A DNA stretch of 64,000 nucleotides from Mycobacteriales bacterium (GTDB lineage: Bacteria > Actinomycetota > Actinomycetes > JAFAQI01): positions 5,420 to 69,419 of the forward strand of contig DATAVE010000160.1 in NCBI GenBank assembly GCA_036267875.1. Reading direction: 5' to 3'. A model generated the notes under the pieces. That model was not told the origin of the DNA. It did not search any database and worked only from the letters and a program-made list of their open reading frames with translations. Position numbers and translations under genes: made by a program. How positions within the stretch are numbered: the first letter of the stretch is position 1; each line of letters opens with the position of its first letter. Of the stretch, positions 2,801-26,233 are shown in pieces.

Positions 2801-4072
2801 TCACGAACGCAAGGTACCGAGGCACTTGTAGAACGTGTGGATGACCTCGTTGCCGTAGTCGGGCTTGTGCGCCATTGCGTTGCGAACGAAGCCGCCGCTG
2901 ACTCGGCGTACCGGATCCGCAAACGCGACCTGACCGCCGGCGCCTAGTCCGCCAATCGCGGTTGGCGTCGGGCCGAACCAGCGCGGGCCCTTGGCCGGCG
3001 CGTCGTTGTAGAGATAGCCGAGCGTTCGCGTCACCGCGGTTGTCTTCTCGAGCTTGCCGAGCTTGACCATCCACTTCGGCAACGACTCGGTGATGGTCAC
3101 GTCGCCCGCCGTGATGACCGGCTGGCTCCACTTGCGTACCGACGCCTCGGATACGAACCGGCGGCCATCGACCTCGCCGCCGAGCGCCAGGATGGAGAAG
3201 AAGCGCGCCAGCGCCGGAGCAGTCGCAAGCCCGCTGCTGGCCATCACCTCGGCACGCAAGATTCCGCCGTGCTCCATCATGTCGACGACTTGCATCACCA
3301 GCGACGAGTCGCCGTTGCCTGCCATCGCCATCCCGGCGAACGTCGTCGGGTCGGTCATCTTGGTCATCACTCGCGGAATTAGCTGCTTCTGCGGGAAGCC
3401 CAGCTCATCGGGATCGAAGGTGATGACCTTCGCTACTCGCGCTAGGTCAGCGTCGGTCGCCGCGATGTGAATGTCGAGTCCGAGTGGCTCGATGACCTCG
3501 GTACGAAGGAACGTCCCCGGGCTCACGCCGGTGATGCGACGTACGACCTCGCCGACCAGCCAGCCGAAAGTCAGCGCGTGATAGCCGTGACGGGTGCCCG
3601 GCGCCCAGGCAAGCGGCTCCGCCGCGATCGCCGCCGCGATCGCCTTGTAGTCGTCCCAGCCCTCGCCGTCGCCCTTCATCAGGCGCAGCTGAGGCGGCAC
3701 CCGGATCGCGCCTGCGGTGTGCGACATCAGCTGACGGACGGTGACCTCGTCCTTGCCCGCGGCCGCAAACTCCGGCCAGTACTTCGCGACCTTCGCGTCG
3801 AGGTCGATCTCGCCTCGGTCGTCGAGCAGCTGCACGTCGAAGGCAAGAAAGGACTTGGTGACCGACATCAGAACCGCGAGGGTGTCGGGCTGCCACGCCA
3901 CGCCGGGCGAGGCGAAGCCGGTGCGGAGGTCGACGGTCAGATCGCCGTCGACGTACGCCGCAAAAGCGGCACCGCCTGCCCCCGCATGGGCTGAGTTCAC
4001 GAGAGCATCGCGGACTGGCTCGAACCCAGCGGCGACATAGCCGTGCTCGGTGTCCGACGTCGTCGTCGTCAC
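2801..4072 (-). CDS. serine hydrolase, beta-lactamase/esterase (class C-like) family; paralog of 29143-30405
   Basis: 423 aa with an S-x-x-K motif (SVTKS) near the N-terminus, a GVAWQPDT region and ELGFP; GTG start. About 50% of the N-terminus is shared with the ORF at 29143. Confidence 0.8.
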   Translation of the reverse strand: MTTTTSDTEHGYVAAGFEPVRDALVNSAHAGAGGAAFAAYVDGDLTVDLRTGFASPGVAWQPDTLAVLMSVTKSFLAFDVQLLDDRGEIDLDAKVAKYWPEFAAAGKDEVTVRQLMSHTAGAIRVPPQLRLMKGDGEGWDDYKAIAAAIAAEPLAWAPGTRHGYHALTFGWLVGEVVRRITGVSPGTFLRTEVIEPLGLDIHIAATDADLARVAKVITFDPDELGFPQKQLIPRVMTKMTDPTTFAGMAMAGNGDSSLVMQVVDMMEHGGILRAEVMASSGLATAPALARFFSILALGGEVDGRRFVSEASVRKWSQPVITAGDVTITESLPKWMVKLGKLEKTTAVTRTLGYLYNDAPAKGPRWFGPTPTAIGGLGAGGQVAFADPVRRVSGGFVRNAMAHKPDYGNEVIHTFYKCLGTLRS

Positions 4073-4119: not shown

Positions 4120-4758
4120 ATGACGACGGTGTCCAGGGCCTCTGCTGCGCCCGCGCCGCCTGATCTGATGGCCGACAACAACTACGGCCCCCGTCATCTC
4201 GAGATTCTCGACGGACTCGAGACGATCGTCCTGACAGAAGGCTTCCGCGACCTCACCGTGGGTGGCCTTGCCGAGCGGCTGAGGTGCTCGCGACGGACGC
4301 TCTACGAGATCGCTGACAGCAAAGAGGGCCTCGTCCTCATCGTCATCGACCGGGTGATGCGCCGCCTCGCTCGCGTGGCACGCGACGCTGCTGCCCGTGA
4401 GGAGACGCTGCTCGACCAGGTACGCGCGTATCTCACCAAGGGCCTCACCGAGCTGCACCGCGCGACACTCAGCTTCACCGAGGACGTCGCTGCCTCGCCG
4501 GACGCGCAGCTGCTCGTCTCTTCGCACTTCAAGTACGCCCGCAGCATGGTCGAGCGAATGCTCGTCCGGGGGATGGAGACGGGCGAGTTCCGCGAGATCC
4601 ACCCGCGCATCACCGCCGAGACCTTCGACGCCGCCCTGATGCGCCTGCTCGACCCCGAGCTCCTGCGTGACGCGGGCGTGAGCTTCGCCGAGGCGGTCGA
4701 GGAGTACCTCACGTTGTTCACCGATGGCATCCGAGCGCCAGTGAGAGGAACCGCATGA
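4120..4758 (+). CDS. TetR family transcriptional regulator (alternative TTG start at 4084)
   Basis: HTH region LTVGGLAERLRCSRRTLYEIADSKEGL. Leaderless ATG at about 4120 immediately after the palindrome. Its stop overlaps the next gene (ATGA). Confidence 0.75.
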   Translation: MTTVSRASAAPAPPDLMADNNYGPRHLEILDGLETIVLTEGFRDLTVGGLAERLRCSRRTLYEIADSKEGLVLIVIDRVMRRLARVARDAAAREETLLDQVRAYLTKGLTELHRATLSFTEDVAASPDAQLLVSSHFKYARSMVERMLVRGMETGEFREIHPRITAETFDAALMRLLDPELLRDAGVSFAEAVEEYLTLFTDGIRAPVRGTA

Positions 4759-6299
4759 CCCTGACTCGTGGTCTGCACCGCACGGTCCAGCAGGACCCGG
4801 ATTCGATCATGACGGTCTACCGCGACCGCAAGCACACGCACGGCGAGGTGTTCGACCGCGTCGCGCGTCTCGGCGGCGCGTTGCGCGGGCTCGGCGTCAA
4901 CGACGGCGACCGGCTCGCGATCCTGGCGCTCAACTCCGATCGCTACTCCGACTTCCTGCTCGGTACGGCGTGGGCCGGCGGTGTGGTCAACCCGCAGAAC
5001 ATCCGCTGGGCGGCACCTGAGATCGCGTTTGCGCTCACGGACTCCGAGACCGGGATCCTCTTTGTCGACGACATGTTCGCCGGCATGGCAGGGCAGTTGC
5101 TCAACGATGTCGAGGCGCTGCACACGCTCGTCTACATCGGCGAGGCTGAGACGCCCGAGGGCATGCTCTCGATGGAGGAGCTGATCGCTGGCAGCGAGCC
5201 GGCTCCGGACCGCGCTCCTCGCGACAACGAGATGGTCGGGCTCTTCTACACCGGTGGCACGACCGGTCAGCCGAAGGGCGTGATGCTTAGCGCGGCCAAC
5301 CTGCTGACGTCCGCACTCGGCTCGATGTCATCGGGTTCGTTCGTTGGACCGAACTCGCGGTTTCTGCATGCGGCGCCGATGTTCCACCTCGCCGATCTCG
5401 CAGCCTGGTACTCGCTGCTGCAGCTGGGCTGCGAGCACATCATCGTCTCCCACTTCGACGTCGGGCTCGTCCTGCAGGCCTTCCAGGACCACCAGGTCAC
5501 AGACGTGCTGTTGGTGCCGACGATGATCCAGATGGTCACCGATGCACCGACGCTTTGCGAGTACGACGTGACCAGCGTCGAGCGGATCATCTACGGCGCA
5601 TCACCGATCGACGGCGACCTGCTGGCCCGCGCGATGAAGGCGTTCCCGAACGTCAGCTTCAGCCAGGCGTACGGCATGACGGAGCTCTCGCCGGTCGCGA
5701 CGATGTTGTCTGCCGAGGACCACACCGACGACCTGCACCCCAAGCGCCGGCGGTCCGCCGGACGGGCGGCGCCGCACGCGATGGTGACGATCGTCCGTGC
5801 GGACGGCAGCCTCGCTGACACTGGCGAGGTCGGCGAGATCGTCGTCGCCGGTCCGCACGTGATGCTCGGCTACTGGCAACGTCCAGAGGAGACCGCAGCC
5901 GCGCTACGGCCAGACGGGATGCATACCGGCGACGCCGGCTACCTCGACGAGGACGGCTATCTGTTCGTCGTCGACCGCATCAAGGACATGATCATCTCGG
6001 GCGGCGAGAACATCTACTCCGCGGAGGTCGAGAACGCCCTGTGCGCCCATCCCGCCGTCGCGACCTGCGCCGTCATCGGCGTTGCGGACGACAAGTGGGG
6101 CGAGATCGTCCACGCGGTCGTGGTCTTGCAGCCGGGTGCCGCAGCGACGGCTGACGAGCTTGTCGCCTTCACTCGGGAGCAGATCGCCGGTTACAAGGTG
6201 CCGCGTCGCGTCACCTTCACCGAGGCTCTGCCCATTTCGGGTGCCGGCAAGATCCTCAAGCGCGTGCTCCGCGACGAGCTCGCCTCCACCGGCGCCTGA
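4755..6299 (+). CDS. AMP-dependent acyl-CoA synthetase/ligase (FadD-like)
   Basis: AMP-binding motif LFYTGGTTGQPKGVML and C-terminal GEIVVAGPHVMLGYW...KVPRRV...GKILKR. Confidence 0.85.
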   Translation: MTLTRGLHRTVQQDPDSIMTVYRDRKHTHGEVFDRVARLGGALRGLGVNDGDRLAILALNSDRYSDFLLGTAWAGGVVNPQNIRWAAPEIAFALTDSETGILFVDDMFAGMAGQLLNDVEALHTLVYIGEAETPEGMLSMEELIAGSEPAPDRAPRDNEMVGLFYTGGTTGQPKGVMLSAANLLTSALGSMSSGSFVGPNSRFLHAAPMFHLADLAAWYSLLQLGCEHIIVSHFDVGLVLQAFQDHQVTDVLLVPTMIQMVTDAPTLCEYDVTSVERIIYGASPIDGDLLARAMKAFPNVSFSQAYGMTELSPVATMLSAEDHTDDLHPKRRRSAGRAAPHAMVTIVRADGSLADTGEVGEIVVAGPHVMLGYWQRPEETAAALRPDGMHTGDAGYLDEDGYLFVVDRIKDMIISGGENIYSAEVENALCAHPAVATCAVIGVADDKWGEIVHAVVVLQPGAAATADELVAFTREQIAGYKVPRRVTFTEALPISGAGKILKRVLRDELASTGA

Positions 6300-6302: not shown

Positions 6303-7298
6303 CTACGCAGACTCGCGGATGACCACCGAGTGGGTCGGCAACGGCAGGCTCGACGTGTCCGTGCTCCCGTCGGCGCGGGCTTTCACGGCCTGCGCGATCG
6401 ACTCGGCGAAGACGGTGAAGTCGACGGTGATCGTCGTCAGCGCCGGCGTGAACGTGCGGCCCAGCGGGATGTCGTCGAGGCCCATGAGTGCGACGTCGTC
6501 CGGTACGACGACGCCCTCCGCGCTCAGCGCCGAGATGACCGCAATGGCGTACTCGTCGTTGTATGCGGCGATCGCTTCGGGCATCTCGCCGTTGCGGATC
6601 CACTCCTGCACGGCCCGTCGTGGATATCCCGGCTCGAAGGCCATGCGCTGCACCCGCAGCTCGATTCCAGCATCCCGAGCGGTACGACGCATTGCGGCGA
6701 GCGACCGCCTTTCGACGCGGATGTCCACGCCGAGCCGCGGCGGCAGCAAAGCGAGCACGTGACGGTGACCGCGCGCGGCGAGGTACTCGAGCTGCGTCAC
6801 ACGTTCGCTTCGCGCGTAGACGTCGCCGGCCGACTCCCAGCCCAACTGTCCAGGCAGGTTTCCCGACAGCACGGGTACGCCGGCCCGCCGAAGCTCCTCG
6901 AGAGCTGGGTCGTCGCTGGGCAGCAGAAGGTCGAGCACCGCCGCCGGAGCAAGTCGGCGCCATGCTTTGACCTGTGCCGATGCGCCGTCTCGCGGGGTGA
7001 AGTCGGGGACGAGGAACAGGCCTTCCCGCTCGAGCGCGCCGGCACAGGTCTCGACCAGGTTGGCGAGGGTGGGGATGAGAGTCAGCCCGGGCAGCGGGCA
7101 CACCACCGCGTCGGTGCGCCCGCGACGCAGGCCACGAGCGGCGGAGTTCGGCTGATAGCCGAGGTCGTCCGCAGCTTTGCGAACTCGCGTCCTCGTTCGC
7201 TCGCTGATTGCCTGACCAGGCGTGGAGTTGAGCACGTAGCTGACAGTCGCCTGCGAGACGCCCGCTCGTCGCGCCACATCGGCGCTGGTGACGGCCAC
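6303..7298 (-). CDS. LacI family transcriptional regulator
   Basis: N-terminal HTH VTSADVARRAGVSQATVSYVLN followed by a periplasmic-binding-fold effector domain. Confidence 0.85.
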   Translation of the reverse strand: MAVTSADVARRAGVSQATVSYVLNSTPGQAISERTRTRVRKAADDLGYQPNSAARGLRRGRTDAVVCPLPGLTLIPTLANLVETCAGALEREGLFLVPDFTPRDGASAQVKAWRRLAPAAVLDLLLPSDDPALEELRRAGVPVLSGNLPGQLGWESAGDVYARSERVTQLEYLAARGHRHVLALLPPRLGVDIRVERRSLAAMRRTARDAGIELRVQRMAFEPGYPRRAVQEWIRNGEMPEAIAAYNDEYAIAVISALSAEGVVVPDDVALMGLDDIPLGRTFTPALTTITVDFTVFAESIAQAVKARADGSTDTSSLPLPTHSVVIRESA

Positions 7299-7299
7299 G

Positions 7300-7396
7300 T
7301 GCCTCCCTCGACAGTCCGGTCAACCAAATGTAACTTATTCGATTCAGGACTGATTCGTATAAGTGATCTTCGGGCAAGTGTCAGAAGGGTCAGGCC
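7300..7396. promoter_or_regulatory. AT-rich divergent promoter/operator region between lacI and the SBP operon
   Basis: Locally AT-rich tract in a 70% GC background. It holds direct repeats ATTCGAT/ATTCGTA and a TATAAG -10-like hexamer upstream of the GTG start at 7397. Confidence 0.35.
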
Positions 7397-8914
7397 GTGG
7401 AGCTGAGACAGCGCCCGTCCCGTCGCGGTGGCCTCGCGGTCGCGGCGCTGTCCATCGCGCTGCTTGCCGGCTGTGGCAGCACCGTCGAGCCGTCGGCTGA
7501 GCGGACGATCGGCCCGATCCACGTCGGCATGGGTGCGCCGCCACAGGCCTCGACCACTCCGGTCACCGCTCCGTCTTCCGGCACGGCAGGCGGTCACCCG
7601 ACGTTGCCGTCCGTGACGTCGCCGGCTACGACCGGGGTGAGCACGGCTCCGGGTGTGACGACCACGCCCACCGGCACCCAGTCCACCCACGCGCCGGTGC
7701 AGACCGGGCCGATCACCGTCGGCTTCCTGACGACTGCGACGACGAACGCATCGCAGTACGGCGGATCGCTCGGCAATACGGTCAACGAGACGACGGTCGA
7801 CCAGGCGCTGATCAACGCGATCGACAAGCAGGGCGGTCTCGACGGCCGCCAGCTCAAGGTCATCTTCGCCCACACCGACACCGGCTCGACCAACTGGGAC
7901 AACGACTTCGAAGCGGCCTGCCAGACCTTCACCCAGGACCACCACGTCGATGTGGTGCTCGGCTACGAGTTCAACTACGAGCCCGACTTCGAGTCGTGTC
8001 TGGCCCAGCAGGGCATCCCGCACCTCGATGACGGCTTCAACGTCCCGAGCAGCGGCGAGCTCGCGAAGTACCCGCTGTTCTGGTCGCTGGATGTCCCGAC
8101 TATCGGACAGCGCTCGATCGAGAAGTTTCAGGGTGCGATCAACACGGGCTTTCTGACGTCCAAGAACAAGCTGGGGATTTTGCTCGACAGCTGCCCAGGC
8201 ACTCAGGATGCCTGGAACGGACAGGTGCTGCCGTTCCTGAAGTCCCACCACATCGACGTCGCCACGACCTTCACCGCTAGTTGCAACACCGGCAACAACG
8301 CAGGTGCGACCTCCGCAATCGGAAGCCTGACCAGTGGACTGCTGAAGTTCCGTAGTGCCGGGGTCGATCGCATCAGCTTCGTGGCGGTTTCCGAGGCACC
8401 GGTCCTCTACCTCGCGTCGGTCGCTGCGAACGCTCAGGGCTATCGGCCGGGCTGGATCGTCTCTTCGCTTGGTCAGCTGGCGATCATCGGTGGCGAGTCC
8501 CCGATGCCGCAAATGCAGAACACTCGCGGCTTCGGCTGGTTACCCAGCCAGGACGTTCCGCCCGCATACGCACCGAAGAAGAACGCAGCCCAGAGTCGCT
8601 GCATCTCGCTGCTCGCCTCGCAGAAGGTCTACCCGCGCTCGGCCGCTGACTACGGCTACGCCTACAACGCCTGCGAAGCCGTCTTCGTGTACGAGAAGGC
8701 ACTGAAGCTCGACGGCGGCAACTCCGATGGTCAGGCGATCAGCAACGCGATCGGAAATATCGGCAGCTTCCAGAGCACGTTGAACCTTGAAGGGAAGTCG
8801 GTGTTCTCGAGCGCTCGGCGCAACGACGCCCCGCAGGTCTACAAGCCGATCAACTGGGATGGCGGCTGTCACTGCTTCCGGTACGGCTCACAGACCTACC
8901 CGATGCCGTCGTGA
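7397..8914 (+). CDS. lipoprotein, LivK-like (type I periplasmic binding fold, HAAT family) substrate-binding protein A1
   Basis: Lipobox LLAGCGS, then a Thr/Pro-rich linker, then a PBP type-I domain (ITVGFLTTATTNASQYG...GGLDGRQLKVIFAHTDTG). C-terminal CHCFRYGSQ motif. Confidence 0.8.
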   Translation: MELRQRPSRRGGLAVAALSIALLAGCGSTVEPSAERTIGPIHVGMGAPPQASTTPVTAPSSGTAGGHPTLPSVTSPATTGVSTAPGVTTTPTGTQSTHAPVQTGPITVGFLTTATTNASQYGGSLGNTVNETTVDQALINAIDKQGGLDGRQLKVIFAHTDTGSTNWDNDFEAACQTFTQDHHVDVVLGYEFNYEPDFESCLAQQGIPHLDDGFNVPSSGELAKYPLFWSLDVPTIGQRSIEKFQGAINTGFLTSKNKLGILLDSCPGTQDAWNGQVLPFLKSHHIDVATTFTASCNTGNNAGATSAIGSLTSGLLKFRSAGVDRISFVAVSEAPVLYLASVAANAQGYRPGWIVSSLGQLAIIGGESPMPQMQNTRGFGWLPSQDVPPAYAPKKNAAQSRCISLLASQKVYPRSAADYGYAYNACEAVFVYEKALKLDGGNSDGQAISNAIGNIGSFQSTLNLEGKSVFSSARRNDAPQVYKPINWDGGCHCFRYGSQTYPMPS

Positions 8915-10485
8915 TGCGCACACGGTTGGTGTCGGCGACCGCGCTGGCGGCTGTCGCAGTTTTGGCCGGCTGCGGCAGCAGCGTCTCGTCGTCGCAGGCG
9001 ACGATCGGTCCCCTCAACGAAAGCCTCGGCGTACCTGGGTTCACAGTCGCGCCCGGAACGCCTGGTGCACCCATTGCAACGAGCCCCGCCACCGGCACGA
9101 CGGGGCCAGCGACGCCGACACAGTCCGCGTCACGTGGTCACGGCGCGACGTCGATCCCCACGTCCGTCGCATCGACCACAGAGATCCAGCCCAGCCAGTC
9201 TCTAGGTGGCGGTGCCACCTCGACTGCGCCGACACCGACCGGCGGGAGGACAACCTCGACGCCGGTGAAGGCGACCGGCCCGATCACGGTTGGCTTCCTT
9301 ACGACGGCGACAACCAACGCTGCTCAGTACGGCGCGTCGAACGGGAACACGGTCTCCGAGACCGGCATCGATGACGCGCTCGTCAATGCGCTCAACAAGC
9401 AGGGCGGGATCGACGGCCGGCAGCTCAAGGTCGTCTTCGCGCACACCGACACAGGCGGCAGCGACTGGGCGGGTGAGTTCCAGGCGGCCTGTTCGACGTT
9501 CACCCAGGACAACCACGTGGACGCGGTGCTGGGCTACGCGTTCGACTACGCGCCTGCGTTCGAGTCCTGCCTGGCCCAGAAGGGCATCCCGCACATCTCC
9601 GACTCCTACGCCGTCACGAGCCAAGCGGAGATGGCGAAGTATCCGCTGTACTGGTCGCTCGACACGCCGCCGATCGAGCAGCGCGAGATGGCGAAGTACG
9701 AGGGTGCCATCAAGACGGGCGTCCTTACACCCGCGAACAAGCTCGGCGTGATTCTCGACACCTGCGCGGGCAACCAGGCGGCATGGCAAGGCACGGTCCT
9801 GCCGTTCCTGCAGGCGCACCACATCAACGTTGCTCCGCCGTTCACCATTGCGTGTGGCACCGGCCAGAACGCCGGCATCGTCGCAACCGTCGGCTCGCTG
9901 ACGAACGTGTTGCTGCGGTTTCGTAGCGAGGGCGTCAACCGGATCAGCTTCGAGACGGCGGAGGGCCCGGCGCTGTTGCTCAGCAGCATCGAGGCGCAGA
10001 CGCAGGGCTATCACCCCGACTGGATCGTTTCCTCGCTCGCGGGACTTGCAGTGATCGGCGGCGAGACGCCGATCCCGCAGATGCAGAAGACCTACGGCTT
10101 CGGCTGGATACCGAGTGAAGACGTACCTCCGCAGTACGCGCCAGCCAAAGACGCGGCGCAGCTCCGGTGCCTCTCGTTGCTGCACTCGCAGAAGGAGTAT
10201 CCGAAGGCTGCTGCCGACTTCGTCTACGCCTACGACGCGTGCGAGGCGGTCTTCGTCTACGCCGATGCCCTCACGCACGACGGCGGAGACACGACCGGCA
10301 CGGCGGTGAGCCAGGCGATCGCATCGCTGGGCACGTCCTTCCAGAGCACGCTTAACCTCGGCGGCAAGTCGGACTTCTCGGCAGCGAGGCACAACGACGC
10401 TCCGATGGTCTACAAGCCGATCAACTGGGACGGCGACTGCCACTGCTTCCGCTATGGCTCGCAGACCTTCAAGATGCCGAGCTAG
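8911..10485 (+). CDS. lipoprotein, LivK-like substrate-binding protein A2 (tandem paralog)
   Basis: ATGA overlap with the upstream gene. Lipobox LAGCGSS, Thr/Pro linker, same PBP domain. C-terminal INWDGDCHCFRYGSQTFKMPS. Confidence 0.8.
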   Translation: MMRTRLVSATALAAVAVLAGCGSSVSSSQATIGPLNESLGVPGFTVAPGTPGAPIATSPATGTTGPATPTQSASRGHGATSIPTSVASTTEIQPSQSLGGGATSTAPTPTGGRTTSTPVKATGPITVGFLTTATTNAAQYGASNGNTVSETGIDDALVNALNKQGGIDGRQLKVVFAHTDTGGSDWAGEFQAACSTFTQDNHVDAVLGYAFDYAPAFESCLAQKGIPHISDSYAVTSQAEMAKYPLYWSLDTPPIEQREMAKYEGAIKTGVLTPANKLGVILDTCAGNQAAWQGTVLPFLQAHHINVAPPFTIACGTGQNAGIVATVGSLTNVLLRFRSEGVNRISFETAEGPALLLSSIEAQTQGYHPDWIVSSLAGLAVIGGETPIPQMQKTYGFGWIPSEDVPPQYAPAKDAAQLRCLSLLHSQKEYPKAAADFVYAYDACEAVFVYADALTHDGGDTTGTAVSQAIASLGTSFQSTLNLGGKSDFSAARHNDAPMVYKPINWDGDCHCFRYGSQTFKMPS

Positions 10486-10497: not shown

Positions 10498-11475
10498 ATG
10501 CCACGCAGCTACGGGGACCCGGACAAGCGAGGCCTGCCGCGGCACATGCGTCTCCTGTTCGGCGCGACCGAGGTGGCCCAGCGGTTCCACCTGGCTCCGT
10601 CCATGGAAGACGTGATCACCAAGCAGTCGCATGCGCAACGCCAGGTCGGCCACCCGGGATGGTGGATGACCTACCGGATCAACCCATCGGTCTCGACGTA
10701 CGAGGTCGCGATCGACAGCCGTGGCGGGCCGCTCGAGCTGCGGATCTACCGGCCGAGCAACGCCGGGCCTGAAGCGCCGATCGTCCTTTACATCCACGGC
10801 GGTGGATTCATGCTCGGCGGGCTCGAGGCGTGCGCCTGGATCTGCGGCGAGATCGCCGCGCAGACCGGCGCGGTGCTCGCCGCGGTCGAGTACCGGCTGG
10901 CTCCGGAGCACCCCTTCCCGGCCGGCCTCGACGACTGCCGCGACGCACTCGACTGGCTGGCGAAGGGGTCGCTGAGCGGCACCGATGCGAACCGCATCGC
11001 GGTTGCCGGTGACAGCGCGGGAGGCAACCTCAGCGCCGCGTTGTGCTTGGAGGCCCGGGACAGCGGCGGTCCGGCGATCGTCCACCAGACGCTGATCTAC
11101 CCGACGCTCGACTCGTCGCTGCGTGGCCAGTCGTGGGTTGACTGCGCAGGCGCCGGCGTCGACCGATCGGCCGGCGAGCAGATGTTCGAGGCGTACGCCG
11201 GTGCGGATCGAGAGAACCCGCTGGTGAGTCCGCTGCACTCGACCGATCTGTCCAACCTGCCGCCGGCGTTCATCGTCAACTCCGACTACGACGTGCTGCG
11301 CGACGACGGTTTTATGTACGCCGAGGCATTGCGTGCAGCGGGCGTCGAGGTGAGGCGCACCAACTACATCCGGGCACCCCACGGACTGCTGTCGATGCCC
11401 CGGCTTTTGCCGGTCGCCCGCCAGATGATCGCCGAGATCACCGGCGAGATCTCCCGCTACCTGCCGGTCGCCTGA
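10498..11475 (+). CDS. alpha/beta hydrolase, HSL-family esterase/lipase
   Basis: HGGGF oxyanion motif (LYIHGGGFMLGG) and GDSAGG nucleophile elbow. Confidence 0.8.
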   Translation: MPRSYGDPDKRGLPRHMRLLFGATEVAQRFHLAPSMEDVITKQSHAQRQVGHPGWWMTYRINPSVSTYEVAIDSRGGPLELRIYRPSNAGPEAPIVLYIHGGGFMLGGLEACAWICGEIAAQTGAVLAAVEYRLAPEHPFPAGLDDCRDALDWLAKGSLSGTDANRIAVAGDSAGGNLSAALCLEARDSGGPAIVHQTLIYPTLDSSLRGQSWVDCAGAGVDRSAGEQMFEAYAGADRENPLVSPLHSTDLSNLPPAFIVNSDYDVLRDDGFMYAEALRAAGVEVRRTNYIRAPHGLLSMPRLLPVARQMIAEITGEISRYLPVA

Positions 11476-11479
11476 ACCT

Positions 11480-12019
11480 ATGCAGCAGCGACGCGCCTTG
11501 CTTGCCCTGGCAGCGGGAGTGTCGCTTGCCCTGGGCGCGACGGGCTGCGCCACGAGCCTGCACGGCCTGGAGTTCCACAACGACAACCGGATGAAGATCG
11601 CCTCGCCGCATCAGAACCAGCTGGTGAGCGACCCCGTCACCCTGAGCTGGACCATGAAGGACTTCGCGGTTGCAGGTCTGGGCGATGGCCCAGTGCAGAA
11701 CGACACCGGATACTTCGCGGTCTTCATCGACCGCGCGCCGGTCAAGCCTGGGCAGACCCTTGCTTCCGTGAGCGAGAACACCCCGTCCTGCCAGCACACG
11801 ACGCTGTGTACGACGAAGTCGTATCTCGCCGGTGAGCAGGTCTACACGACAACCAAGGACGAAATCCGCCTCCCGCCGATCGCCGATCTGCTGAACAACC
11901 ACGAGTCCACGCAGTACCACCAGGCGACGGTGATCTTGATCAACACAGCAGGAGAGCGGATTAGCGAGAGTGCCTGGACGGTGGAGTTCCGGATGCACTC
12001 TTCCGGAGTGAACGACTGA
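11480..12019 (+). CDS. conserved lipoprotein of unknown function (paralog of 23525-24058)
   Basis: Lipobox LGATGCATS. The shared motif LSWTMKDF and its position immediately upstream of the MFS-LivF gene hold in both locus copies. Confidence 0.6.
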   Translation: MQQRRALLALAAGVSLALGATGCATSLHGLEFHNDNRMKIASPHQNQLVSDPVTLSWTMKDFAVAGLGDGPVQNDTGYFAVFIDRAPVKPGQTLASVSENTPSCQHTTLCTTKSYLAGEQVYTTTKDEIRLPPIADLLNNHESTQYHQATVILINTAGERISESAWTVEFRMHSSGVND

Positions 12020-14235
12020 TGGCCGCACGCAAGCAAGCCCCAGCGTCGGCGGCTGCCGCCGCGGATCGGGCTGCGGCGGAGATCGAGCAGACGAAGTCGA
12101 CGCTTCGCGAGCAGGCGCGCAGGACGCTGGGTGTCACAGGCGAGGACAGCACCGAAGCATTCAGGTTGCTGTTGCGGCGCAACCGCTTGTCGGTCTATCC
12201 GATCTTCGCCCTCGGGATGCTCTTCATCTGCGACGGTTTCCAGGGAACCGCGCTGGTCATCCTGTCGCCCAACGTCGCGGCCGCGCTGGGACTCGGCATT
12301 ACCGGGATCGGCGCGGCGCGGTCGATTGGGGCGTTTGCTGCGCTGGCATCGCCGATGCCGATGGCCGCACTGACTCAGCACAAGGCCCGACGGGCGGTGC
12401 TCTGTGTGATCACCGGGATCGCGTGGAGCTTCACGACGCTGTTCACCGGCTTCATCGTCTCCTCGCTCGGCCTGTTCGTGATCCTGGTCCTCGACGGGCT
12501 GAGCACGGGCACGGTGCTGGCACTGCATCCGCCGCTGATCATGGACAGCTACCACCCCTCGATGCGGGCGCGCGCCCTGTCGGCGTACTACGCGCTCGGT
12601 CAGTTCGGTGGCTTGGTCTGTCCGTTGCTCGTCGCGCTGCTGGCGGGCCCACTCAACCTCACCTGGCGTGGCGTCTTCCTCGTCCTCGGCCTCACCTCGC
12701 TGGCGATGTCGCTGCTGGCGGTGTTCCTGCGCGACCCGGGCTTCGGCAAGTGGGACACCGAGAAGCTCCGCGACAGTGTTCATGCCTCACACGGCGAGGG
12801 TGATCAGCTCGCCAAGGACGAGGTCGCGCTCGGCTTCTGGGAGATCGTGCGACGGGTCATGATGATCCCGACGATCAAACGCATCATGGCCTGCGCGGTC
12901 GTCCTCGGGATGTTGCTCATCCCGTTCCAGACCTACATCTCGTTCTTTCTGCTGCAGCGGTGGAACATGGACGCGAGCCACCGTGCGCTGTTCTTCGCCT
13001 ATGCCTCCGGCCTGACCATCATCGCGCTGATGATCTACGGCAGGATCGGAGAGCGGCAGTTCCGACGTACGCCGGCTCAGGTGCTTCGCGTGACGGCTTA
13101 CCTGCAGCTTGCGGGAATCGCCCTGCTGTTGTTCGGTGGGCTGTCGCCTTGGTTCGGCGGGATGCTCGCCGGCTTCGGGCTTGGCTCAGCCGTCGTCTAC
13201 ATCCTGTTTCCGGCAGTCACCCTCACGATCCTGTCGGTCGTTCCGGCGCACATGCGGGCGCACACCCAGTCGGTGTTCACGATCTTCGTCGGCTTGGGCA
13301 GTCTGCTCGGCGCGCTGCTGCTCGGCAACGTCGACGACCAGTACGGACCGACGGTGGCGATCGTCGTGATCGCTGCGGTGGGCTTCTTCGGAGCGGGACT
13401 GCTGGTGAGCGCCGCGAAGTTCGTCGTCGGGGACCTAGATCGGATGATCGACGACATCCTGGAAGAAGAGGAGATCAAGCGGATCACCGCCGCCGGCACT
13501 CACCTGCCGATGCTCGCGTGCCGCGGCATCGACTTCTCCTACGGCCAGCTCCAGGTCCTCTTCGGCGTCGACTTCACCGTCGACGACGGCGAGATGGTCG
13601 CGCTGCTCGGCACCAACGGCGCCGGCAAGTCGACGCTGTTGAAGGTCGTCTCCGGCATCGGAATCCCGAGCAAGGGCAGCGTCCGGTATCGCGGCCAGGA
13701 GATCACCTATCTCGATGCCGAGCGCCGACTTCGCCTCGGCATCACGCAGATCCCGGGCGGCCGCGCGGTGTTCGGACCGATGACGGTCCTGGAGAACCTG
13801 CGCAGCTACGGCTACAGCCTCGATGTCTCCCGGCGCGAGCTCAACCAGGCGATCGACTCCTGCTTCGAGGCATTCCCTCGGCTCCATGAGCGGCGGACGT
13901 CGCTTGCCGCCACGCTGTCCGGCGGCGAGCAGCAGATGCTCGGCCTGTCCAAGGCGTTGATGGTCAAGCCGAAGCTACTGGTCATCGACGAGCTCAGTCT
14001 CGGCCTGGCGCCGGTCATCGTCGGGCAGCTGCTCGAGATGGTGAAGCAGATCAACGCGGCAGGCACCGCCGTCGTGCTGGTCGAGCAGTCCGTGAACATC
14101 GCACTGAATCTCGTCGAGCACGCCTACTTCATGGAGAAGGGCGAGATGCGCTTCGACGGCAAGGCCGCCGACCTGCTCGCCCGTGACGATCTGCTGCGCG
14201 CAGTCTTCCTGCAAGGTGCGTCGGTGGCCGGATGA
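12019..14235 (+). CDS. fusion protein: N-terminal 12-TM MFS-like membrane domain plus C-terminal LivF-type ABC ATPase
   Basis: The first 470 aa show a 6+6 TM pattern with a central cytoplasmic loop. The C-terminus has Walker A GTNGAGKST, signature LSGGEQQMLGLSKAL and Walker B LLVIDELSLGLAP as in LivF. TGATG overlap with the upstream gene. Confidence 0.8.
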   Translation: MAARKQAPASAAAAADRAAAEIEQTKSTLREQARRTLGVTGEDSTEAFRLLLRRNRLSVYPIFALGMLFICDGFQGTALVILSPNVAAALGLGITGIGAARSIGAFAALASPMPMAALTQHKARRAVLCVITGIAWSFTTLFTGFIVSSLGLFVILVLDGLSTGTVLALHPPLIMDSYHPSMRARALSAYYALGQFGGLVCPLLVALLAGPLNLTWRGVFLVLGLTSLAMSLLAVFLRDPGFGKWDTEKLRDSVHASHGEGDQLAKDEVALGFWEIVRRVMMIPTIKRIMACAVVLGMLLIPFQTYISFFLLQRWNMDASHRALFFAYASGLTIIALMIYGRIGERQFRRTPAQVLRVTAYLQLAGIALLLFGGLSPWFGGMLAGFGLGSAVVYILFPAVTLTILSVVPAHMRAHTQSVFTIFVGLGSLLGALLLGNVDDQYGPTVAIVVIAAVGFFGAGLLVSAAKFVVGDLDRMIDDILEEEEIKRITAAGTHLPMLACRGIDFSYGQLQVLFGVDFTVDDGEMVALLGTNGAGKSTLLKVVSGIGIPSKGSVRYRGQEITYLDAERRLRLGITQIPGGRAVFGPMTVLENLRSYGYSLDVSRRELNQAIDSCFEAFPRLHERRTSLAATLSGGEQQMLGLSKALMVKPKLLVIDELSLGLAPVIVGQLLEMVKQINAAGTAVVLVEQSVNIALNLVEHAYFMEKGEMRFDGKAADLLARDDLLRAVFLQGASVAG

Positions 14236-17132
14236 AGTGGGGCCGCTGGGCGATCCGGGTCGCTGCGTTCGCTGCTGCGATTGCGGTGGCGAAGCTCGTG
14301 TTGGTCGAGTTGCACAAGCACGGACACCTCCAGACGTCCGCGACTCCGATGCAGGTCATCGTGCTGGGCGCGATGACCGGCATGACGTACGGGTTGCTCG
14401 GTGTTGGCCTGGTGCTGGTCTACCGAAGCAGCCGTGTCATCAACTTTGCGCACGGGAACATCGGCGCGTTCGGCGCCGCGCTGTTCGGTGTGATCGCCGT
14501 GAAGTGGCATGTGCCGTACTGGATTGCGTTCGTCCTGGCGATGGCGGTCTCGGGACTGGTCGGCGTCGGCACCGAGGCAGCAGCGGTACGCCGGCTTCGC
14601 AACGCGCCGTTGCTGATGAGCGTCGTCGTGACGCTCGGCATCGGGCAGTTCCTGGTCTTCTTCTCCCTCGTCATCAACTCGACGGCGGGTGCCGGCGCGA
14701 CGTACCCGAGCCCGCCGTTCATGCCTACGTTCCACGTGCAGTCGCTCTTCGTGACGCAGGCGTACTCGGGGATGCTGATCCTGTCGCCGATCGTCGTGGT
14801 CGGGCTGGCGGTCTTCCTGCGGGTGAGCAAGTTCGGGCTCGGGCTGCGTGCGGCGGCGGCCAACCAGGAAGCCGCGCGGATGGCCGGCATCTTTGCCGGC
14901 CGGATGTCGTCCCTCGCGTGGGCGATCGCCGGCGCGCTGTCGGCGTTCACAGCGATCCTCATCGCTCCGGCAGAGGGTTTCGTCAGCGGTGACTCGTTCG
15001 GGCCCGACCTGATCCTGCGGGCGATGACCGCGGCCGCGATTGGTCGGATGGACAACCTTCCGATCACGTTCTTCGCGGGTATCGGGCTTGGCGTCGTCGA
15101 GAACGTCCTGCTCTGGGACACCAGCAACTCAGACCTCGTCCAGATGGTGCTGTTCGTCGTCGTCCTCGGCGTGCTGCTGCTGCAGCGGCGGCGTGGCGGC
15201 AGAGGCGAGGAGAAGAGCAACTGGGCCTCGGTCCAGGCGCTGCGGCCACTGCCGGAGCAGCTTCGACGCCTGCCGTCGGTGCGGCTGCTCGGCCCTTTGG
15301 TCATGGTTGTCTTCTTCGGTGTGCTGGCGCTGGCGCCGCTCGCGATCGACAACAGTGGCTCGGTCACCCTCATCTACTTCATCGCGGTTGCGGTCGTCGG
15401 CTTGTCGATCAGCCTGCTGACCGGGCTCGGCGGTCAGCTCACGCTGGGACAGTTCATGGTTGCGGCGGTAGGCGCCGTCGTGTCCTTCCAGGTGTCCAGC
15501 CGGATCGGCGACTTCCCGCTGGCGCTGTTGTACGCCGGACTCGCCGCGGGCGTCGTATCGGTGCTGATCGGATTGCCGGCACTTCGGCTCCGCGGGCTGA
15601 TGCTGACGATCACGACGCTCGCATTCGCGCTCGCCGGGCCGTGGCTGCTCAGCAGGTCGTTTGCCTTGGGTGACGGGGTCAACCCCGGTGCGCCCATTGT
15701 CGATGGCCATCCGCTCGACAACGGCCACAACTACTACTACTTCGCGCTGGCCGTGTTCTTCATCTGCTTTGTCATCGCCTCGAACGTACGTCGCAGTGGT
15801 TTCGGCCGACTACTGATCGCGGTTCGCGACAACGAAGACAATGCCCGTGCGTTCGCGATCCGCGCGACGACCGCGAAGATGCAGGGCTATCTCATTGCCG
15901 GCTTCATCGCCGGCGTCGGCGGCGCGATCTACGCGCATTCGCGTACCGAGATCGACGGCTCGATCTTCGCGAGCAGGACGTCGATCGACGTTGTCGTCAT
16001 GTCGGTGCTGGGCGGCATCTCTTCGCTGGCCGGCCCGATCATCGGGTGCGCCTGGATCATCGGCATCCCCAAGATCCCGAATCTCGGCAACCTCGGGCTC
16101 GCGGCGACGTACTTCGGTGCCACGGCGATGATCCTTTGGCGACCGAACGGCCTCATCAGCTTCGTCGAGGCGCCGCGGCGCATCGTTGTCACCGCGCTCG
16201 CGCGGCTTCACGGCATCGACGGCAAGGCTGCGTTCGCCGACCAACGATCGGTCGCGGTCGTGGCGTCGACCGCCGTCGCAGCTGCCGCGATTCCCGCTCG
16301 TCCGGCCGCACCCGTCCCGCCGCAACGGCTTGCGGTGCGCCCGACGATCCTCGAGGCCCGCAGTCTGATGAAGCGCTTCGGCGGGGTGACGGCGGTCAAC
16401 GACGTGTCGTTCTCGGTCCTTGCTGGTGAGACGCTCGGTCTGATCGGCCCGAATGGCGCCGGCAAGACCACAACCTTCGAGCTGCTCGGAGGCTTCACCA
16501 AGCCCGACCGCGGATCGGTCACCTTCGAGCGGCGCGACGTGTCACACCTCGGGCCCGAGGGACGGGCGCGGCTCGGACTGATCCGATCGTTCCAGGACGC
16601 CGCGCTGTTCCCGACGATGACCGTCGAGGAGACCGTGGTTCTGGCTCAGGAGCGGATCAGCGGTACGTCGTTCATCGGGTCCGTGCTCGCCATCTCAGGT
16701 CGTAGCGAGCGGGCCAAGAAGGCGCGTGCTCGCGAGCTGATCGCGATGCTCGGCCTCGACGCCTATCGGGATCGACAGATCCGCGAACTGTCGACCGGCA
16801 CCAGGCGGATCAGCGAGATCGCGTGTCTGGTCGCACTCGAGCCGACCTGCCTACTGCTCGACGAGCCGTCCTCCGGCATCGCCCAACGCGAGACCGAGGC
16901 CCTCGGCGTTCTGCTCGACGATCTCAAGCGTCAGCTCGACCTGACACTGGTCGTGATCGAGCACGACATTCCACTGATCATGGGAATCTCCGACCGGATC
17001 GTCGCGATGGCCGACGGTGCCGTCATCGCCGAGGGGACGCCGGACGTCGTGCGCAACAACGCGATGGTGATCGACGCATACCTCGGCGGCAGCATCACCG
17101 CGATCGAGCGATCGGGGGTAGGTCGTGCGTAG
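14232..17132 (+). CDS. triple fusion LivH-like permease, LivM-like permease, LivG-like ABC ATPase (HAAT family)
   Basis: 966 aa. The N-terminus has LivH motifs (INFAHGNIGAFGA). The middle is a LivM-like 8-10 TM block, followed by an Ala/Pro linker. The C-terminal ATPase has [16 protein letters not shown] and LLLDEP. ATGA overlap with the upstream gene. Confidence 0.8.
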   Translation: MKWGRWAIRVAAFAAAIAVAKLVLVELHKHGHLQTSATPMQVIVLGAMTGMTYGLLGVGLVLVYRSSRVINFAHGNIGAFGAALFGVIAVKWHVPYWIAFVLAMAVSGLVGVGTEAAAVRRLRNAPLLMSVVVTLGIGQFLVFFSLVINSTAGAGATYPSPPFMPTFHVQSLFVTQAYSGMLILSPIVVVGLAVFLRVSKFGLGLRAAAANQEAARMAGIFAGRMSSLAWAIAGALSAFTAILIAPAEGFVSGDSFGPDLILRAMTAAAIGRMDNLPITFFAGIGLGVVENVLLWDTSNSDLVQMVLFVVVLGVLLLQRRRGGRGEEKSNWASVQALRPLPEQLRRLPSVRLLGPLVMVVFFGVLALAPLAIDNSGSVTLIYFIAVAVVGLSISLLTGLGGQLTLGQFMVAAVGAVVSFQVSSRIGDFPLALLYAGLAAGVVSVLIGLPALRLRGLMLTITTLAFALAGPWLLSRSFALGDGVNPGAPIVDGHPLDNGHNYYYFALAVFFICFVIASNVRRSGFGRLLIAVRDNEDNARAFAIRATTAKMQGYLIAGFIAGVGGAIYAHSRTEIDGSIFASRTSIDVVVMSVLGGISSLAGPIIGCAWIIGIPKIPNLGNLGLAATYFGATAMILWRPNGLISFVEAPRRIVVTALARLHGIDGKAAFADQRSVAVVASTAVAAAAIPARPAAPVPPQRLAVRPTILEARSLMKRFGGVTAVNDVSFSVLAGETLGLIGPNGAGKTTTFELLGGFTKPDRGSVTFERRDVSHLGPEGRARLGLIRSFQDAALFPTMTVEETVVLAQERISGTSFIGSVLAISGRSERAKKARARELIAMLGLDAYRDRQIRELSTGTRRISEIACLVALEPTCLLLDEPSSGIAQRETEALGVLLDDLKRQLDLTLVVIEHDIPLIMGISDRIVAMADGAVIAEGTPDVVRNNAMVIDAYLGGSITAIERSGVGRA

Positions 17133-18147
17133 CCGCCGGCTGGCGATCGCCGCGTGGGTGATGGCGTTCGGGTTTGGCGGCGTAGGCGCCGCGTCGGCGC
17201 TGCCGATTGCCGGGCACGTCAGGGTCGGCGCCCATCTCATCCGCGACAGCCGGGTCGGCGACCGCGCTGAGGCTTGGTACTCGACGCCGTCCGGCTCGCT
17301 CTGTATCCCACTGGTCGGCTGCCTGCCGCTTCCACTGCCGGTAGCGCTGCCACCGCCGTTGAGCTTCCCGGCTGGGACCCTGCATGTCGGCGTGACGCTG
17401 GGCGCTGAGTCTGCGCGCGCCTACGTCGTACCCGACCTGCCTTCCGACGTAGCGTCGCTGCCGCCAACCGGGGTGCTGATCCTGCCGGTCGACAACAGTC
17501 CGCTCGCCGGGACGTTGGACCTCGGGTCGTCGCGGATCAAGGCGTGCCTGACCACCGGGCGAGCGCCGACGCAGCCGACCGCCAAAGCGGCCAGCGCCGG
17601 CTCACCGCCGTCCGTCGATTGCACAGTGTCGACGCCGGCGAGGTACGACGCGGCGATCAAGGCGTTCCGGGTCGACCTCACGCCGTTCCTCGCAAAGTGG
17701 CAACACGGCCGAGCCGACCATGGGATCGCGCTGCTGCCTGGCTTGGCAGGCGCCAGCCGGCTGGCCGAGTGGCAGGTCGCTTTCGACGGCAGGGGATCGA
17801 CCTCGCCGACGGTCTACTCGCTGCTCGCCAACGCCGGGTCGGGCCGGCCGCCGACAACGCCGACCCCGACTCCGAGCTCCCCGCCATCGATTGCGGCCAG
17901 TCCACCTACGATCACCGTCCCGCTACCTGGCGTGAGCGGCGTCGAGCCGCCAGTCGCGCCACCCGCGATCGCGCCGTCGGCGCAAGCTGAGGTCTACCTG
18001 GTCCGCCCTACGGGCTTCCGCTATCCGGCGATCTTCATCGCCCCGCTGGCGATCCTCGCCGGCGTCGTCTTCTTCGGCCGGTTGTTCACCGGCTCGAGTG
18101 TTCGACCACGCAGAACGAGAATGGGAGCTGAGAGCAGCGATGGCTGA
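17125..18147 (+). CDS. secreted Pro/Thr-rich protein with a C-terminal TM anchor (paralog of 19445-20464)
   Basis: Signal peptide, a conserved AEAWYSTP...C..L..C block, a Pro-rich linker and a C-terminal hydrophobic helix. GTG start overlaps the LivHMG stop by 8 nt. Confidence 0.55.
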   Translation: MRSRRLAIAAWVMAFGFGGVGAASALPIAGHVRVGAHLIRDSRVGDRAEAWYSTPSGSLCIPLVGCLPLPLPVALPPPLSFPAGTLHVGVTLGAESARAYVVPDLPSDVASLPPTGVLILPVDNSPLAGTLDLGSSRIKACLTTGRAPTQPTAKAASAGSPPSVDCTVSTPARYDAAIKAFRVDLTPFLAKWQHGRADHGIALLPGLAGASRLAEWQVAFDGRGSTSPTVYSLLANAGSGRPPTTPTPTPSSPPSIAASPPTITVPLPGVSGVEPPVAPPAIAPSAQAEVYLVRPTGFRYPAIFIAPLAILAGVVFFGRLFTGSSVRPRRTRMGAESSDG

Positions 18148-18469
18148 TCTAGGTACTGAGCGTCGGCAGCCGTGGCTGCGAGCGATCACCGATCCGGCAT
18201 CGACCCTGCCCGTCTACCTGGGCGTGGTGGTCGCGGCTGTCGGGTTCGTGCTGCTCGTCATCGGCTGGTCCGACGTCGCGGGGACGGTCGACGTCGGACG
18301 GCAGATGCCGTACCTGATGTCGACCGGACTGCCGGGCATCGCGCTGGTGATGGTCGGACTGGTTGTGGTGAACATCAGCATTCGGCGTCAGGACAGCGCC
18401 GAGCGCGCCCGGCAGATGAGCGCGCTGACCGAGACGCTCGACAAGCTGCGGGCGTCGGACTCGAAGTGA
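18140..18469 (+). CDS. small 2-TM membrane protein (GW-motif family), member 1
   Basis: 109 aa with two hydrophobic helices (VVAAVGFVLLVIGWS; LPGIALVMVGLVVV) followed by an RRQD charged tail. 8-nt overlap with the upstream gene. Paralogous to 19161-19448. Confidence 0.5.
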   Translation: MADLGTERRQPWLRAITDPASTLPVYLGVVVAAVGFVLLVIGWSDVAGTVDVGRQMPYLMSTGLPGIALVMVGLVVVNISIRRQDSAERARQMSALTETLDKLRASDSK

Positions 18470-18741
18470 GTCGGCTGCGCGCGGTTGCGGTGCTGGCGGC
18501 GATCTTCGTCGTCGGCTTCGTGGCGTTCGGCTGGGCTTGGCACGGCGCCCGCCACGCGACGTACGTTCCGCTGCAGGCGCCGTGGGTGATCTCGGGAGGA
18601 CTGGGCGCGATCGCGCTGGTCGGGCTCGCGATCGCCGCGTGGCACATCGACCTCGCGCGCCGCGACGACATCAAGCATCGCTCCGATTGGGATGACTTCA
18701 CCCAGGACCTCAGCGAGGCACTGGCCGAGCGCCAGACCTGA
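18466..18741 (+). CDS. small 2-TM membrane protein, member 2
   Basis: GTG start overlapping the upstream stop. Same architecture (TM-GW-loop-TM-RRDD tail). Paralogous to 18796-19164. Confidence 0.45.
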   Translation: MSRLRAVAVLAAIFVVGFVAFGWAWHGARHATYVPLQAPWVISGGLGAIALVGLAIAAWHIDLARRDDIKHRSDWDDFTQDLSEALAERQT

Positions 18742-23462: not shown

Positions 23463-23477
23463 TGGTTGATAATCCCC

Positions 23478-26229: not shown

Positions 26230-26233
26230 CACG

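Follow-up and report, generated by a model that had tools for sequence, protein, structure and literature searches.

What purpose is served by a pair of cysteines, one residue apart, at the very end of an exported substrate-binding protein? The question is raised by a 64,000-nucleotide stretch of DNA from a Mycobacteriales bacterium (GenBank assembly GCA_036267875.1, contig DATAVE010000160.1, positions 5,420 to 69,419 of the forward strand), which is called the window here and within which all coordinates are counted from its first letter. The window has a G+C content of ~67% and carries two paralogous transport systems, A and B, arranged tail to tail. Each has a pair of tandem substrate-binding proteins (SBPs), a fusion of a major facilitator superfamily (MFS) domain to a LivF-type ATP-binding cassette (ABC) ATPase, and a LivH::LivM::LivG fusion. 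All four SBPs have a Cys-x-Cys (CxC) motif close to the C-terminus, for which a sequence-only reading had offered a disulfide, a metal site or a docking contact as possible explanations. We lean, at somewhat better than even odds, towards a view in which these are lipid-anchored SBPs of the LivK fold that use the CxC motif as a local disulfide staple and feed two HAAT-type importers. Amongst the three options for the motif itself, it is the local disulfide that the pattern of joint cysteine loss favours: CxC is most likely a Cys-x-Cys disulfide that staples a C-terminal tail peculiar to the family.

The gene and motif coordinates are based on the list of open reading frames (ORFs) and their translation, and the four ORFs with a lipobox and a C-terminal CxC motif exist as they had been described. 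SBP1 (7397–8914, plus strand) is a 505-residue lipoprotein, identical to protein P0001 of a Mycobacteriales metagenome-assembled genome (MAG); it comprises the lipobox Cys26 (codon 7472–7474), a disordered tether (residues 27–103; 7475–7705) and a LivK-fold domain (residues 104–505). SBP2 (8911–10485, plus strand; 524 residues, with a 101-residue tether at 8974–9276) is also a lipoprotein and is joined to SBP1 by a GTGA start/stop overlap. On the minus strand are SBP3 (20461–21972; 503 residues, tether 21652–21909) and the lipoprotein SBP4 (21969–23486; 505 residues, tether 23160–23399). The ORF of SBP3 as listed spans 20461–22008, so that its start falls inside SBP4, and the JGI gene call for an identical protein uses a still later start, giving 489 residues. 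The ATG at 21972 is more likely to be the start than 22008, to judge from the sequence, because the gene would then share ATGA with the stop of SBP4 and its product would begin with a normal signal peptide of the lipoprotein type, MSHSLHRAAVGTIVMLSLVAC.

The motif, with its codons confirmed by translation, is C491-H-C493-F-R-Y in SBP1 (8867–8884, plus strand), C510-H-C512-F-R-Y in SBP2 (10438–10455, plus strand), CKCFQY in SBP3 (20488–20505, minus strand) and CKCFKY in SBP4 (21996–22013, minus strand); thus CHCFRY or CKCF(Q/K)Y is found 10–15 residues before the C-terminus. The C-terminal ends are WDGGCHCFRYGSQTYPMPS in SBP1 (the same tail also being given as GGCHCFRYGSQTYPMPS), WDGDCHCFRYGSQTFKMPS in SBP2 (also GDCHCFRYGSQTFKMPS), SSGCKCFQYTSGEQAIG in SBP3 (also SGCKCFQYTSGEQAIG) and DEGCKCFKYTSGPQPIG in SBP4 (also EGCKCFKYTSGPQPIG). 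SBP1 and SBP2 are 59% identical and SBP3 and SBP4 67%, with ~26% identity between the pairs; in the comparison of SBP1 with SBP2, residues 481–500 are the best conserved (95%, against ~60–70% elsewhere). Orthologues of the SBP1, SBP2, SBP3 and SBP4 types are each conserved separately on other contigs, and therefore both tandem duplications are old and have been maintained. Since both copies have been kept for so long, it is plausible from the sequences that the tandem SBPs of a transporter differ in ligand specificity.

The evidence that carries the assignment of CxC is the behaviour of the cysteines across the family. In an alignment of 260 near-full-length members (SBP1 numbering is used throughout), C175, C201, C402 and C426 are present in 260 of 260. 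C266 and C296 occur together in 190 of the 260 and never one alone; the pair is missing from SBP3 and SBP4, and the mature domains have eight cysteines in SBP1 and SBP2 and six in SBP3 and SBP4. The two cysteines of CxC, C491 and C493, occupy a fixed alignment column and are both present in 251 of the 260, again never one alone; of the nine exceptions, one is truncated and the other eight carry substitutions at both positions. As 266 and 296, and likewise 491 and 493, are lost as units, the cysteines fall into four consecutive pairs, 175–201, 266–296, 402–426 and 491–493. They are even in number and disappear pairwise, with perfect co-occurrence over the 260 sequences, in the manner of disulfide-bonded exported proteins. 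The motif, then, is as conserved as had been proposed, but it should not be taken for a lone oddity, as three more conserved pairs precede it in the chain.

Within a set of 142 representatives that are mutually at most 50% identical, 137 have the CxC motif. Its middle residue varies (S in 62, G in 17, T in 15, A in 13, R in nine and others, with H once), and the second cysteine is followed by one of F, L and M, by a free position and by Y, denoted Phi-x-Y below. Family-wide, the 10-residue window containing the motif ranks sixth for conservation within the domain. The idea that the motif arose by chance or from faulty annotation was considered and rejected, since conservation in 251 of 260 members and 137 of 142 representatives is far beyond chance. 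The eight substituted members belong to three independent lineages (P0068/79/80/81; P0096/P0200/P0202; and P0137), all of which keep C402, C426 and the ensuing Phi-x-Y strand. Proteins of this CxC-less kind recur at loci L013, L014 (9884–11491) and L016 (9740–11497); in these, and in the clade of P0096/P0200/P0202, G-G-R, R-G-R or N-K-G stands in place of CxC, with F-x-Y and the other cysteines kept. At another locus (L009, 9827–11488) there is an SBP homologue (E=3e-168 against the family hidden Markov model) whose last 40 residues are unrelated and rich in Gly, Ser, Thr and Ala; this looks like a frameshift or an assembly error just before CxC.

Where the motif lies in the folded protein was approached with structure prediction and mean-field direct-coupling analysis, the latter with an effective sequence number of ~210, at which only the strongest pairs are usable and the lists of partners for tail residues are noisy. 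The top 20 couplings include C266–C296, which serves as a positive control, and C491–C493. Couplings between two helices (L406–A422 and R401–E433) define a register, i+j of ~828, that equals 402+426, and C402 is therefore placed opposite C426. Similarly, the couplings N486–G497, D488–R495 and K483–T500 define the last beta-hairpin (i+j=983), whose tight turn has C491 and H492 at its tip. The AlphaFold2 model of SBP1 agrees, DSSP assigning strands at 481–488 and 493–496, a loop at 489–492 and a short bridge at 501–502; SBP3 is alike. Structure prediction, which the sequence-only reading had recommended for locating the motif, and the couplings both place it at the hairpin tip. The strongest couplings of the tail reach the C-lobe (G378–I485 and I326–T500) as well as the N-lobe (L210–W487 and N450–P502), and the tail should therefore be near the hinge. 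Relatives that match the Pfam family PF13458 (Peripla_BP_6) allow CxC to be projected onto positions 342–343 of the 343-position profile, with ~12 residues beyond, so that the last strand and the tail extend past the canonical domain. The C-terminal 65 residues resembled no chain in the PDB. The earlier statement that CxC is not a standard feature of Peripla_BP_6 is upheld on both grounds.

Conserved, consecutive cysteine pairs such as these usually mark exported proteins of actinobacteria that fold oxidatively. Mycobacterial DsbA/VKOR oxidizes exported proteins, for which consecutive disulfides are documented, and ~64% of exported proteins have even cysteine counts (PMC12421883). We infer the disulfide connectivity and the role of the tail from joint loss and couplings, and the following sequence of events can be envisaged. 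The lipoprotein would be processed by Lgt and Lsp, and its lipidated cysteine would keep it on the membrane, with a disordered spacer of ~80–100 residues letting the two-lobed binding domain extend into the cell wall. Actinobacterial DsbA/VKOR would oxidize the cysteine pairs while the chain emerges; CxC, as the fourth pair, would close an 11-membered-ring disulfide across the hairpin turn and stiffen it, and the stiffened turn would pin the extra strand and the tail (Phi-x-Y-x-G-x4-5-P), packed on both lobes by the hinge. The tandem SBPs would then hand substrate to the two paralogous HAAT-type importers (MFS::LivF with LivH::LivM::LivG). In such a scheme CxC would be a structural staple, and neither a ligand site nor a metal site. 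A structural disulfide is nothing out of the ordinary in itself, and it offers the best explanation for the motif; what is unusual is the Cys-x-Cys geometry.

Several points weigh against this interpretation. Cys-x-Cys disulfides are strained and uncommon among known structures. The connectivity is drawn from joint loss and couplings, and CxC would just as readily be lost jointly if it were a bidentate metal site, a two-thiol docking element or a redox element. The contacts of the tail with both lobes come from couplings that are noisy at an effective sequence number of ~210. The four SBPs of the window fall below every Pfam threshold, and the substrate class is a guess from neighbouring genes that vary between loci.

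It has to be considered whether C491 and C493 might each be bonded to C402 or C426, in the style of chemokines, and so tie the C-terminal hairpin to the helices 397–407 and 416–438. No cysteines follow these four in the sequence, each of the four is highly conserved, and some couplings do connect the C-terminal tail with segment 383–454 (N450–P502 and D386–Y496). However, the three independent lineages that lack CxC have kept C402 and C426 through 41–82% divergence, in contrast to C266 and C296, which are always lost as a unit; moreover, the helix register sets C402 facing C426, and DsbA-type oxidation favours consecutive cysteines (PMC12421883). We regard such cross-strapping as unlikely. A site for zinc or an Fe–S cluster made up of the same four cysteines was also tried and rejected, as the CxC-less lineages keep C402 and C426 and the residues that replace CxC (Arg, Ser, Ala, Gly, Ile and Gln) are not metal ligands. 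A different kind of site, in which a reduced CxC provides two thiolates for a metal (for example Cu(I), or else Zn together with a further ligand) or acts as a redox switch that modulates hinge closure or transport, has precedents in the CxC motifs of CCS and Hsp33. The CxC motifs of Hsp33, Erv2/Mia40 and CCS domain 3 share with the SBPs two cysteines one residue apart that are able to close an 11-membered ring. They are flexible or active-site motifs with defined partners, unlike the SBP motif, which is not homologous to them, lies in a confidently predicted beta-turn and has an unconstrained middle residue. That last point bears directly on the histidine of SBP1 and SBP2, which might have suggested a metal ligand, because H is found once in the 137 representatives. 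Nor is there a conserved His, Met or Asp partner amongst the near-invariant columns, so that neither extra conserved ligands nor a constrained middle residue mark CxC as a metal or redox motif. The cysteines are indeed always kept or lost jointly and the motif is at a turn adjoining a strand that crosses the hinge; yet the compartment is oxidizing, the six other cysteines show a pairwise disulfide pattern, and the conserved neighbourhood has no metal-homeostasis genes. A two-thiolate site is very unlikely on this evidence.

The remaining possibilities connect the motif with the transporter. The CxC hairpin and tail could be what is recognized by MFS::LivF, by LivH::LivM::LivG or by an accessory lipoprotein, possibly through a transient mixed disulfide, although we think this decidedly improbable. 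SBPs of the family occur near this type of transporter in at least seven loci (in Mycobacteriales, other Actinomycetota MAGs, Kribbella and an Acidimicrobiales-type contig), and the tail lies beyond the canonical Pfam domain; the 95% conservation of residues 481–500 between SBP1 and SBP2 might also be read in this way, but folding constraints explain strong conservation of a core strand equally well. The CxC-less clades, furthermore, retain the Phi-x-Y strand, and the accessory proteins have even cysteine numbers (two in the mature region of the small lipoprotein and four in that of the Pro-rich protein), which leaves no partner with an odd thiol. A bolder scheme, to which we would give only a slim chance as a whole, makes the hairpin and tail a recognition or redox-gating element of an undescribed hybrid importer: a strained disulfide by the hinge would open and close, controlling docking or lobe closure, and substrate would reach a transporter of the MFS-like 12-helix::LivF type from many paralogous SBPs, every one of them paired with a cytosolic hydrolase of its own. 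The local disulfide staple remains the explanation that we prefer for CxC.

The designation 'LivK-like' in the sequence-only reading requires some qualification, in that it holds at the level of fold and profile and fails by sequence threshold. None of the four SBPs reaches a Pfam family at E≤0.01, the best match being Peripla_BP_5 (PF13433) at 11–15 bits; the best NCBIfam match is UrtA (TIGR03407), at ~15 bits over some 55 residues; and searches of the PDB with single SBP sequences gave nothing meaningful. As no Pfam family is reached, the name cannot be read from ordinary annotation. Relatives of the four straddle the PF13458 gathering threshold of 31.7 bits, which the window SBPs do not attain: P0003, which is 81% identical to SBP1, scores 35.6 bits, a Kribbella homologue 34.9, P0087 32.4 and P0008 26.9. 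The family profile matches LivJ (4gnr) with E=3e-6 over the N-terminal third, an N-x-x-G-G-x-x-G-R motif follows helix 1, whereas hhalign of the family profile with E. coli LivJ covered only 62 mid-protein columns, too few to map its C-terminus onto the LivJ lobes. AlphaFold2, supplied with family alignments, gave a mean predicted local distance difference test (pLDDT) score of 85.6 for SBP1 and 83.4 for SBP3, rising above 90 from about residue 104; the predicted domain has an alternating beta/alpha pattern, with the same fold and hairpin in both models. In Foldseek comparisons with the PDB, LivJ/LivK-type SBPs lead for both models, with target-normalized template modelling (TM) scores of 0.72–0.79 at 10–15% identity. 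The best matches are Brucella 4n0q for SBP1 (TM 0.78) and 4evs for SBP3; others include Desulfitobacterium 4q6b and 4mlc, Rhodopseudomonas palustris 4evs, 4eyg and 4f8j, LivJ (4gnr, 1z15 and 2liv), UrtA and AmiC. The top 50 consist of LivJ/K-type SBPs, UrtA, AmiC and the ectodomains of ANP and mGluR receptors, with probability 1.00. The models therefore have the type I periplasmic-binding-protein fold, as far as prediction goes. Taken with the gene context, this sustains the earlier identification of lipoprotein SBPs of LivJ/LivK type I fold next to LivH/M/G/F-type genes, and the family is an uncharacterized, actinobacterial fringe branch of Peripla_BP_6.

By analogy, the SBPs would bind a small ligand between the lobes and deliver it to the transporter. 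With LivJ, LivK and other HAAT SBPs (4n0q, 4gnr, 1z15 and 2liv) they share the two-lobed type I fold, the C-terminal beta-hairpin and the linkage to LivH/M/G/F-type genes. They differ from them in the low identity (10–15%), in a lipid anchor with a tether of 80–100 residues, and in having an extra last strand and a tail that starts with CxC where the Pfam model stops. LivJ has a single disulfide, C53–C78; the present SBPs have three or four cysteine pairs, and the LivJ disulfide is at non-equivalent positions. Among the best structural matches are also the aromatic-acid SBPs of R. palustris (RPA0985, 4evs; 4eyg; and CouP, 4f8j) and a fatty-acid SBP of Thermomonospora curvata (4n03). The ligands of these LivK-fold SBPs are carboxylic acids and not amino acids, in keeping with the genes for an acyl-CoA ligase, esterase and acyl-CoA dehydrogenase in the neighbourhood here, although their C-terminal region has no detectable sequence similarity to the SBPs and their transporters are ordinary and unfused.

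At the other end of the protein, all four SBPs have a lipobox (LAGC, LAGC, LVAC and LAAC, within residues 21–33; consensus L-A/V-G/A-C-G-S), the pattern tested being a signal peptide ending in [LVI][ASTVI][GAS]C, and so have the signal peptide of bacterial lipoproteins that are substrates of Lgt and Lsp. C26 is at least 90% conserved across the family and a lipobox-like pattern is found in 116 of the 142 representatives. The ensuing tethers are 77, 101, 86 and 80 residues long in SBP1–SBP4, respectively, and are rich in T, S, G, P and A (Thr 20–23%, charged residues below 8%); AlphaFold2 gives them pLDDT values below 50, which is to say predicted disorder. Across the family the median is 82 residues and the range 50–117, but the tether of the Kribbella homologue has only ~22. 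The long low-complexity tether that had been noted is accordingly real in each of the four and is not a family constant; it is lineage-specific, unlike the cysteine signature. In LpqH, the 19-kDa antigen of mycobacteria, a Thr-rich unstructured stretch just after the lipidated Cys is O-mannosylated (PMC5341126), and, judging from the titles of papers on the subject, glycosylation is a general trait of lipoproteins in Mycobacteriales and Corynebacterium. The Thr/Ser/Pro-rich disordered N-terminal segment of O-mannosylated actinobacterial lipoglycoproteins is present here also, with the same order of lipobox Cys and Thr-rich stretch as in LpqH; unlike LpqH, the tether is far longer (77–101 against ~20 residues) and the folds are unrelated. 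By analogy with other Mycobacteriales lipoproteins the tethers are probably O-glycosylated, and they may plausibly be glycosylated, protease-resistant spacers.

The SBP genes are linked in both clusters to genes for LivH/LivM permeases and LivG/LivF ATPases. In system A, the MFS_1::LivF-type ATPase fusion (12019–14235, assigned by Pfam and NCBIfam) precedes LivH::LivM::LivG (14232–17132; two BPD_transp_2 stretches, ABC_tran and BCA_ABC_TP_C), both on the plus strand; in system B the equivalents, located by tblastn and ORFs, are at 24055–26229 and ~26234–29146, also on the plus strand. Matches to PF02653, PF00005 and PF12399 are found in both clusters, with LivG and LivF as the best NCBIfam matches. 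The MFS::LivF protein, in which a 12-helix MFS_1 domain is N-terminal, has 286 homologues, spanning Actinomycetota and including cultured Kribbella species; nearly all of 120 among the matches listed have the same fusion, which is also found at L001, L004, L011, L015, L016, L025, L026 and L027. The gene for the LivH::LivM::LivG polypeptide, of ~970 residues, is always directly 3' of that for MFS::LivF. The homologue at L026 has additional helix-hairpin-helix Pfam matches.

Directly 5' of MFS::LivF there is always a small lipoprotein of 175–180 residues with one Cx5C pair and no Pfam or NCBIfam match, often coupled to it by start/stop overlap, which is probably an accessory subunit. In system A it is at 11480–12019 (plus strand; 179 residues, no Pfam match, one Cx5C pair) and in system B at 23525–24058 (plus strand; tblastn and ORFs); elsewhere it is found at L025 (9464–10000), L026 (9477–10004) and L027 (9474–10004). 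The transporter genes are followed by a trio without Pfam matches. It encodes two membrane proteins of 93–133 residues and, ahead of them, a secreted protein of ~340 residues that contains four cysteines and a stalk rich in Pro and Thr and is anchored by a C-terminal transmembrane segment. In system A these are at 17125–18147, ~18098–18469 and 18466–18741 on the plus strand, none with a Pfam match. In system B the Pro-rich protein (19445–20506, by tblastn) is downstream of SBP3, and the small membrane proteins (19161–19448 and 18796–19164; tblastn and ORFs) follow on the same, minus strand, such that the two copies of the trio in the window converge at ~18741/18796. A further copy is at L027 (15219–17002). 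System B is thus laid out with SBP4, SBP3, the Pro-rich gene and the two small membrane genes on the minus strand, and a divergent transporter half (23525–30405). The gene order ligase, SBP, esterase, lipoprotein, MFS::LivF, LivHMG, Pro-rich and transmembrane proteins recurs in other MAGs; its core (small lipoprotein, MFS::LivF, LivHMG) is found again in Kribbella, the Acidimicrobiales-type contig and others. Near the end of the window (61470–63906, minus strand) two more ORFs encode LivG/LivF-like ABC ATPases, a pair with 28–30% identity to the fused ATPase domains by tblastn, which probably belongs to an ordinary HAAT operon.

The neighbouring enzymes give some indication of what might be transported. 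An Abhydrolase_3 esterase of the hormone-sensitive-lipase type (10498–11475, plus strand; Pfam E=2.5e-62), with no evident signal peptide, follows SBP2, and such an esterase is directly 3' of the SBP in related loci (synteny over L001–L012). A serine hydrolase of the beta-lactamase family (PF00144; 29143–30405, plus strand) comes after the system B transporter and has a paralogue in system A (2819–4042, minus strand). An AMP-binding, acyl-CoA-ligase-like gene (4755–6299, plus strand) is conserved 5' of the SBP in related MAGs. SBPs of the family are often present in multiple copies, paired with esterases or PF00144 hydrolases (L003, L009, L010, L012 and L017), which points to modules of an SBP and a hydrolase that differ in their ester or amide substrate; the neighbours at other loci include M19 and M20 peptidases, MR_MLE-type epimerases, a penicillin amidase and an amidohydrolase. 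Hydrolase genes adjacent to SBPs were also seen at L025–L027. Because cytosolic esterases, beta-lactamase-family hydrolases, peptidases and an acyl-CoA ligase recur nearby, our hypothesis is that the substrates may be small esters or amides, with many SBPs feeding few transporters. An Rfam scan of the window found no riboswitch or other RNA that hinted at the ligand. A LacI-family regulator (6303–7298, minus strand), missing from the syntenic MAG loci, is divergent from SBP1. The 98-bp spacer between them (7299–7396) is by eye richer in A and T than its flanks and contains a 24-nt imperfect palindrome (7324–7347/7350–7373; 75% complementary, 2-nt gap), a candidate operator.

How widespread are these proteins? 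Word-indexed searches found 137 homologues, nearly all of them metagenome or MAG proteins of Mycobacteriales and Frankiales. When 1.84 billion cluster representatives were searched exhaustively with a profile, 5,839 matched at E≤1e-3, of which 2,422 reached E≤1e-30; with a narrowed alignment, scanning a single genome for each GTDB species gave 21 loci, all in MAGs. Cultured members, in Kribbella, were found via the transporter partner: the SBP of Kribbella sp. NBC_01484 (CP109437.1, ~7,603,154–7,604,491, complement strand; 445 residues) has all eight cysteines and ends in GCKCFTYATPPAPIG. The family is almost wholly one of metagenomic Actinomycetota, mostly uncultured, from soil.

A literature search yielded nothing relevant on a CxC motif in SBPs or on the MFS::LivF architecture; as far as the literature could be searched, the combination of MFS::LivF, LivH::LivM::LivG and accessory lipoproteins is undescribed, and, if the extra MFS-like domain is functional, it would widen what is known of type I ABC importers. 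The signature of four consecutive cysteine pairs ending in CxC-Phi-x-Y is a simple sequence diagnostic for the family, which also offers exported bacterial proteins in which the occurrence of a Cys-x-Cys disulfide can be tested. The clade with G-G-R, R-G-R or N-K-G in place of CxC provides natural 'mutants' that can be compared with CxC-bearing paralogues of the same genomes, and Kribbella sp. NBC_01484 is a cultured entry point. The family comprises thousands of clusters at 50% identity that are invisible or marginal to Pfam; large and mostly uncultured as it is, it therefore marks a nutrient-uptake capacity that goes unannotated.

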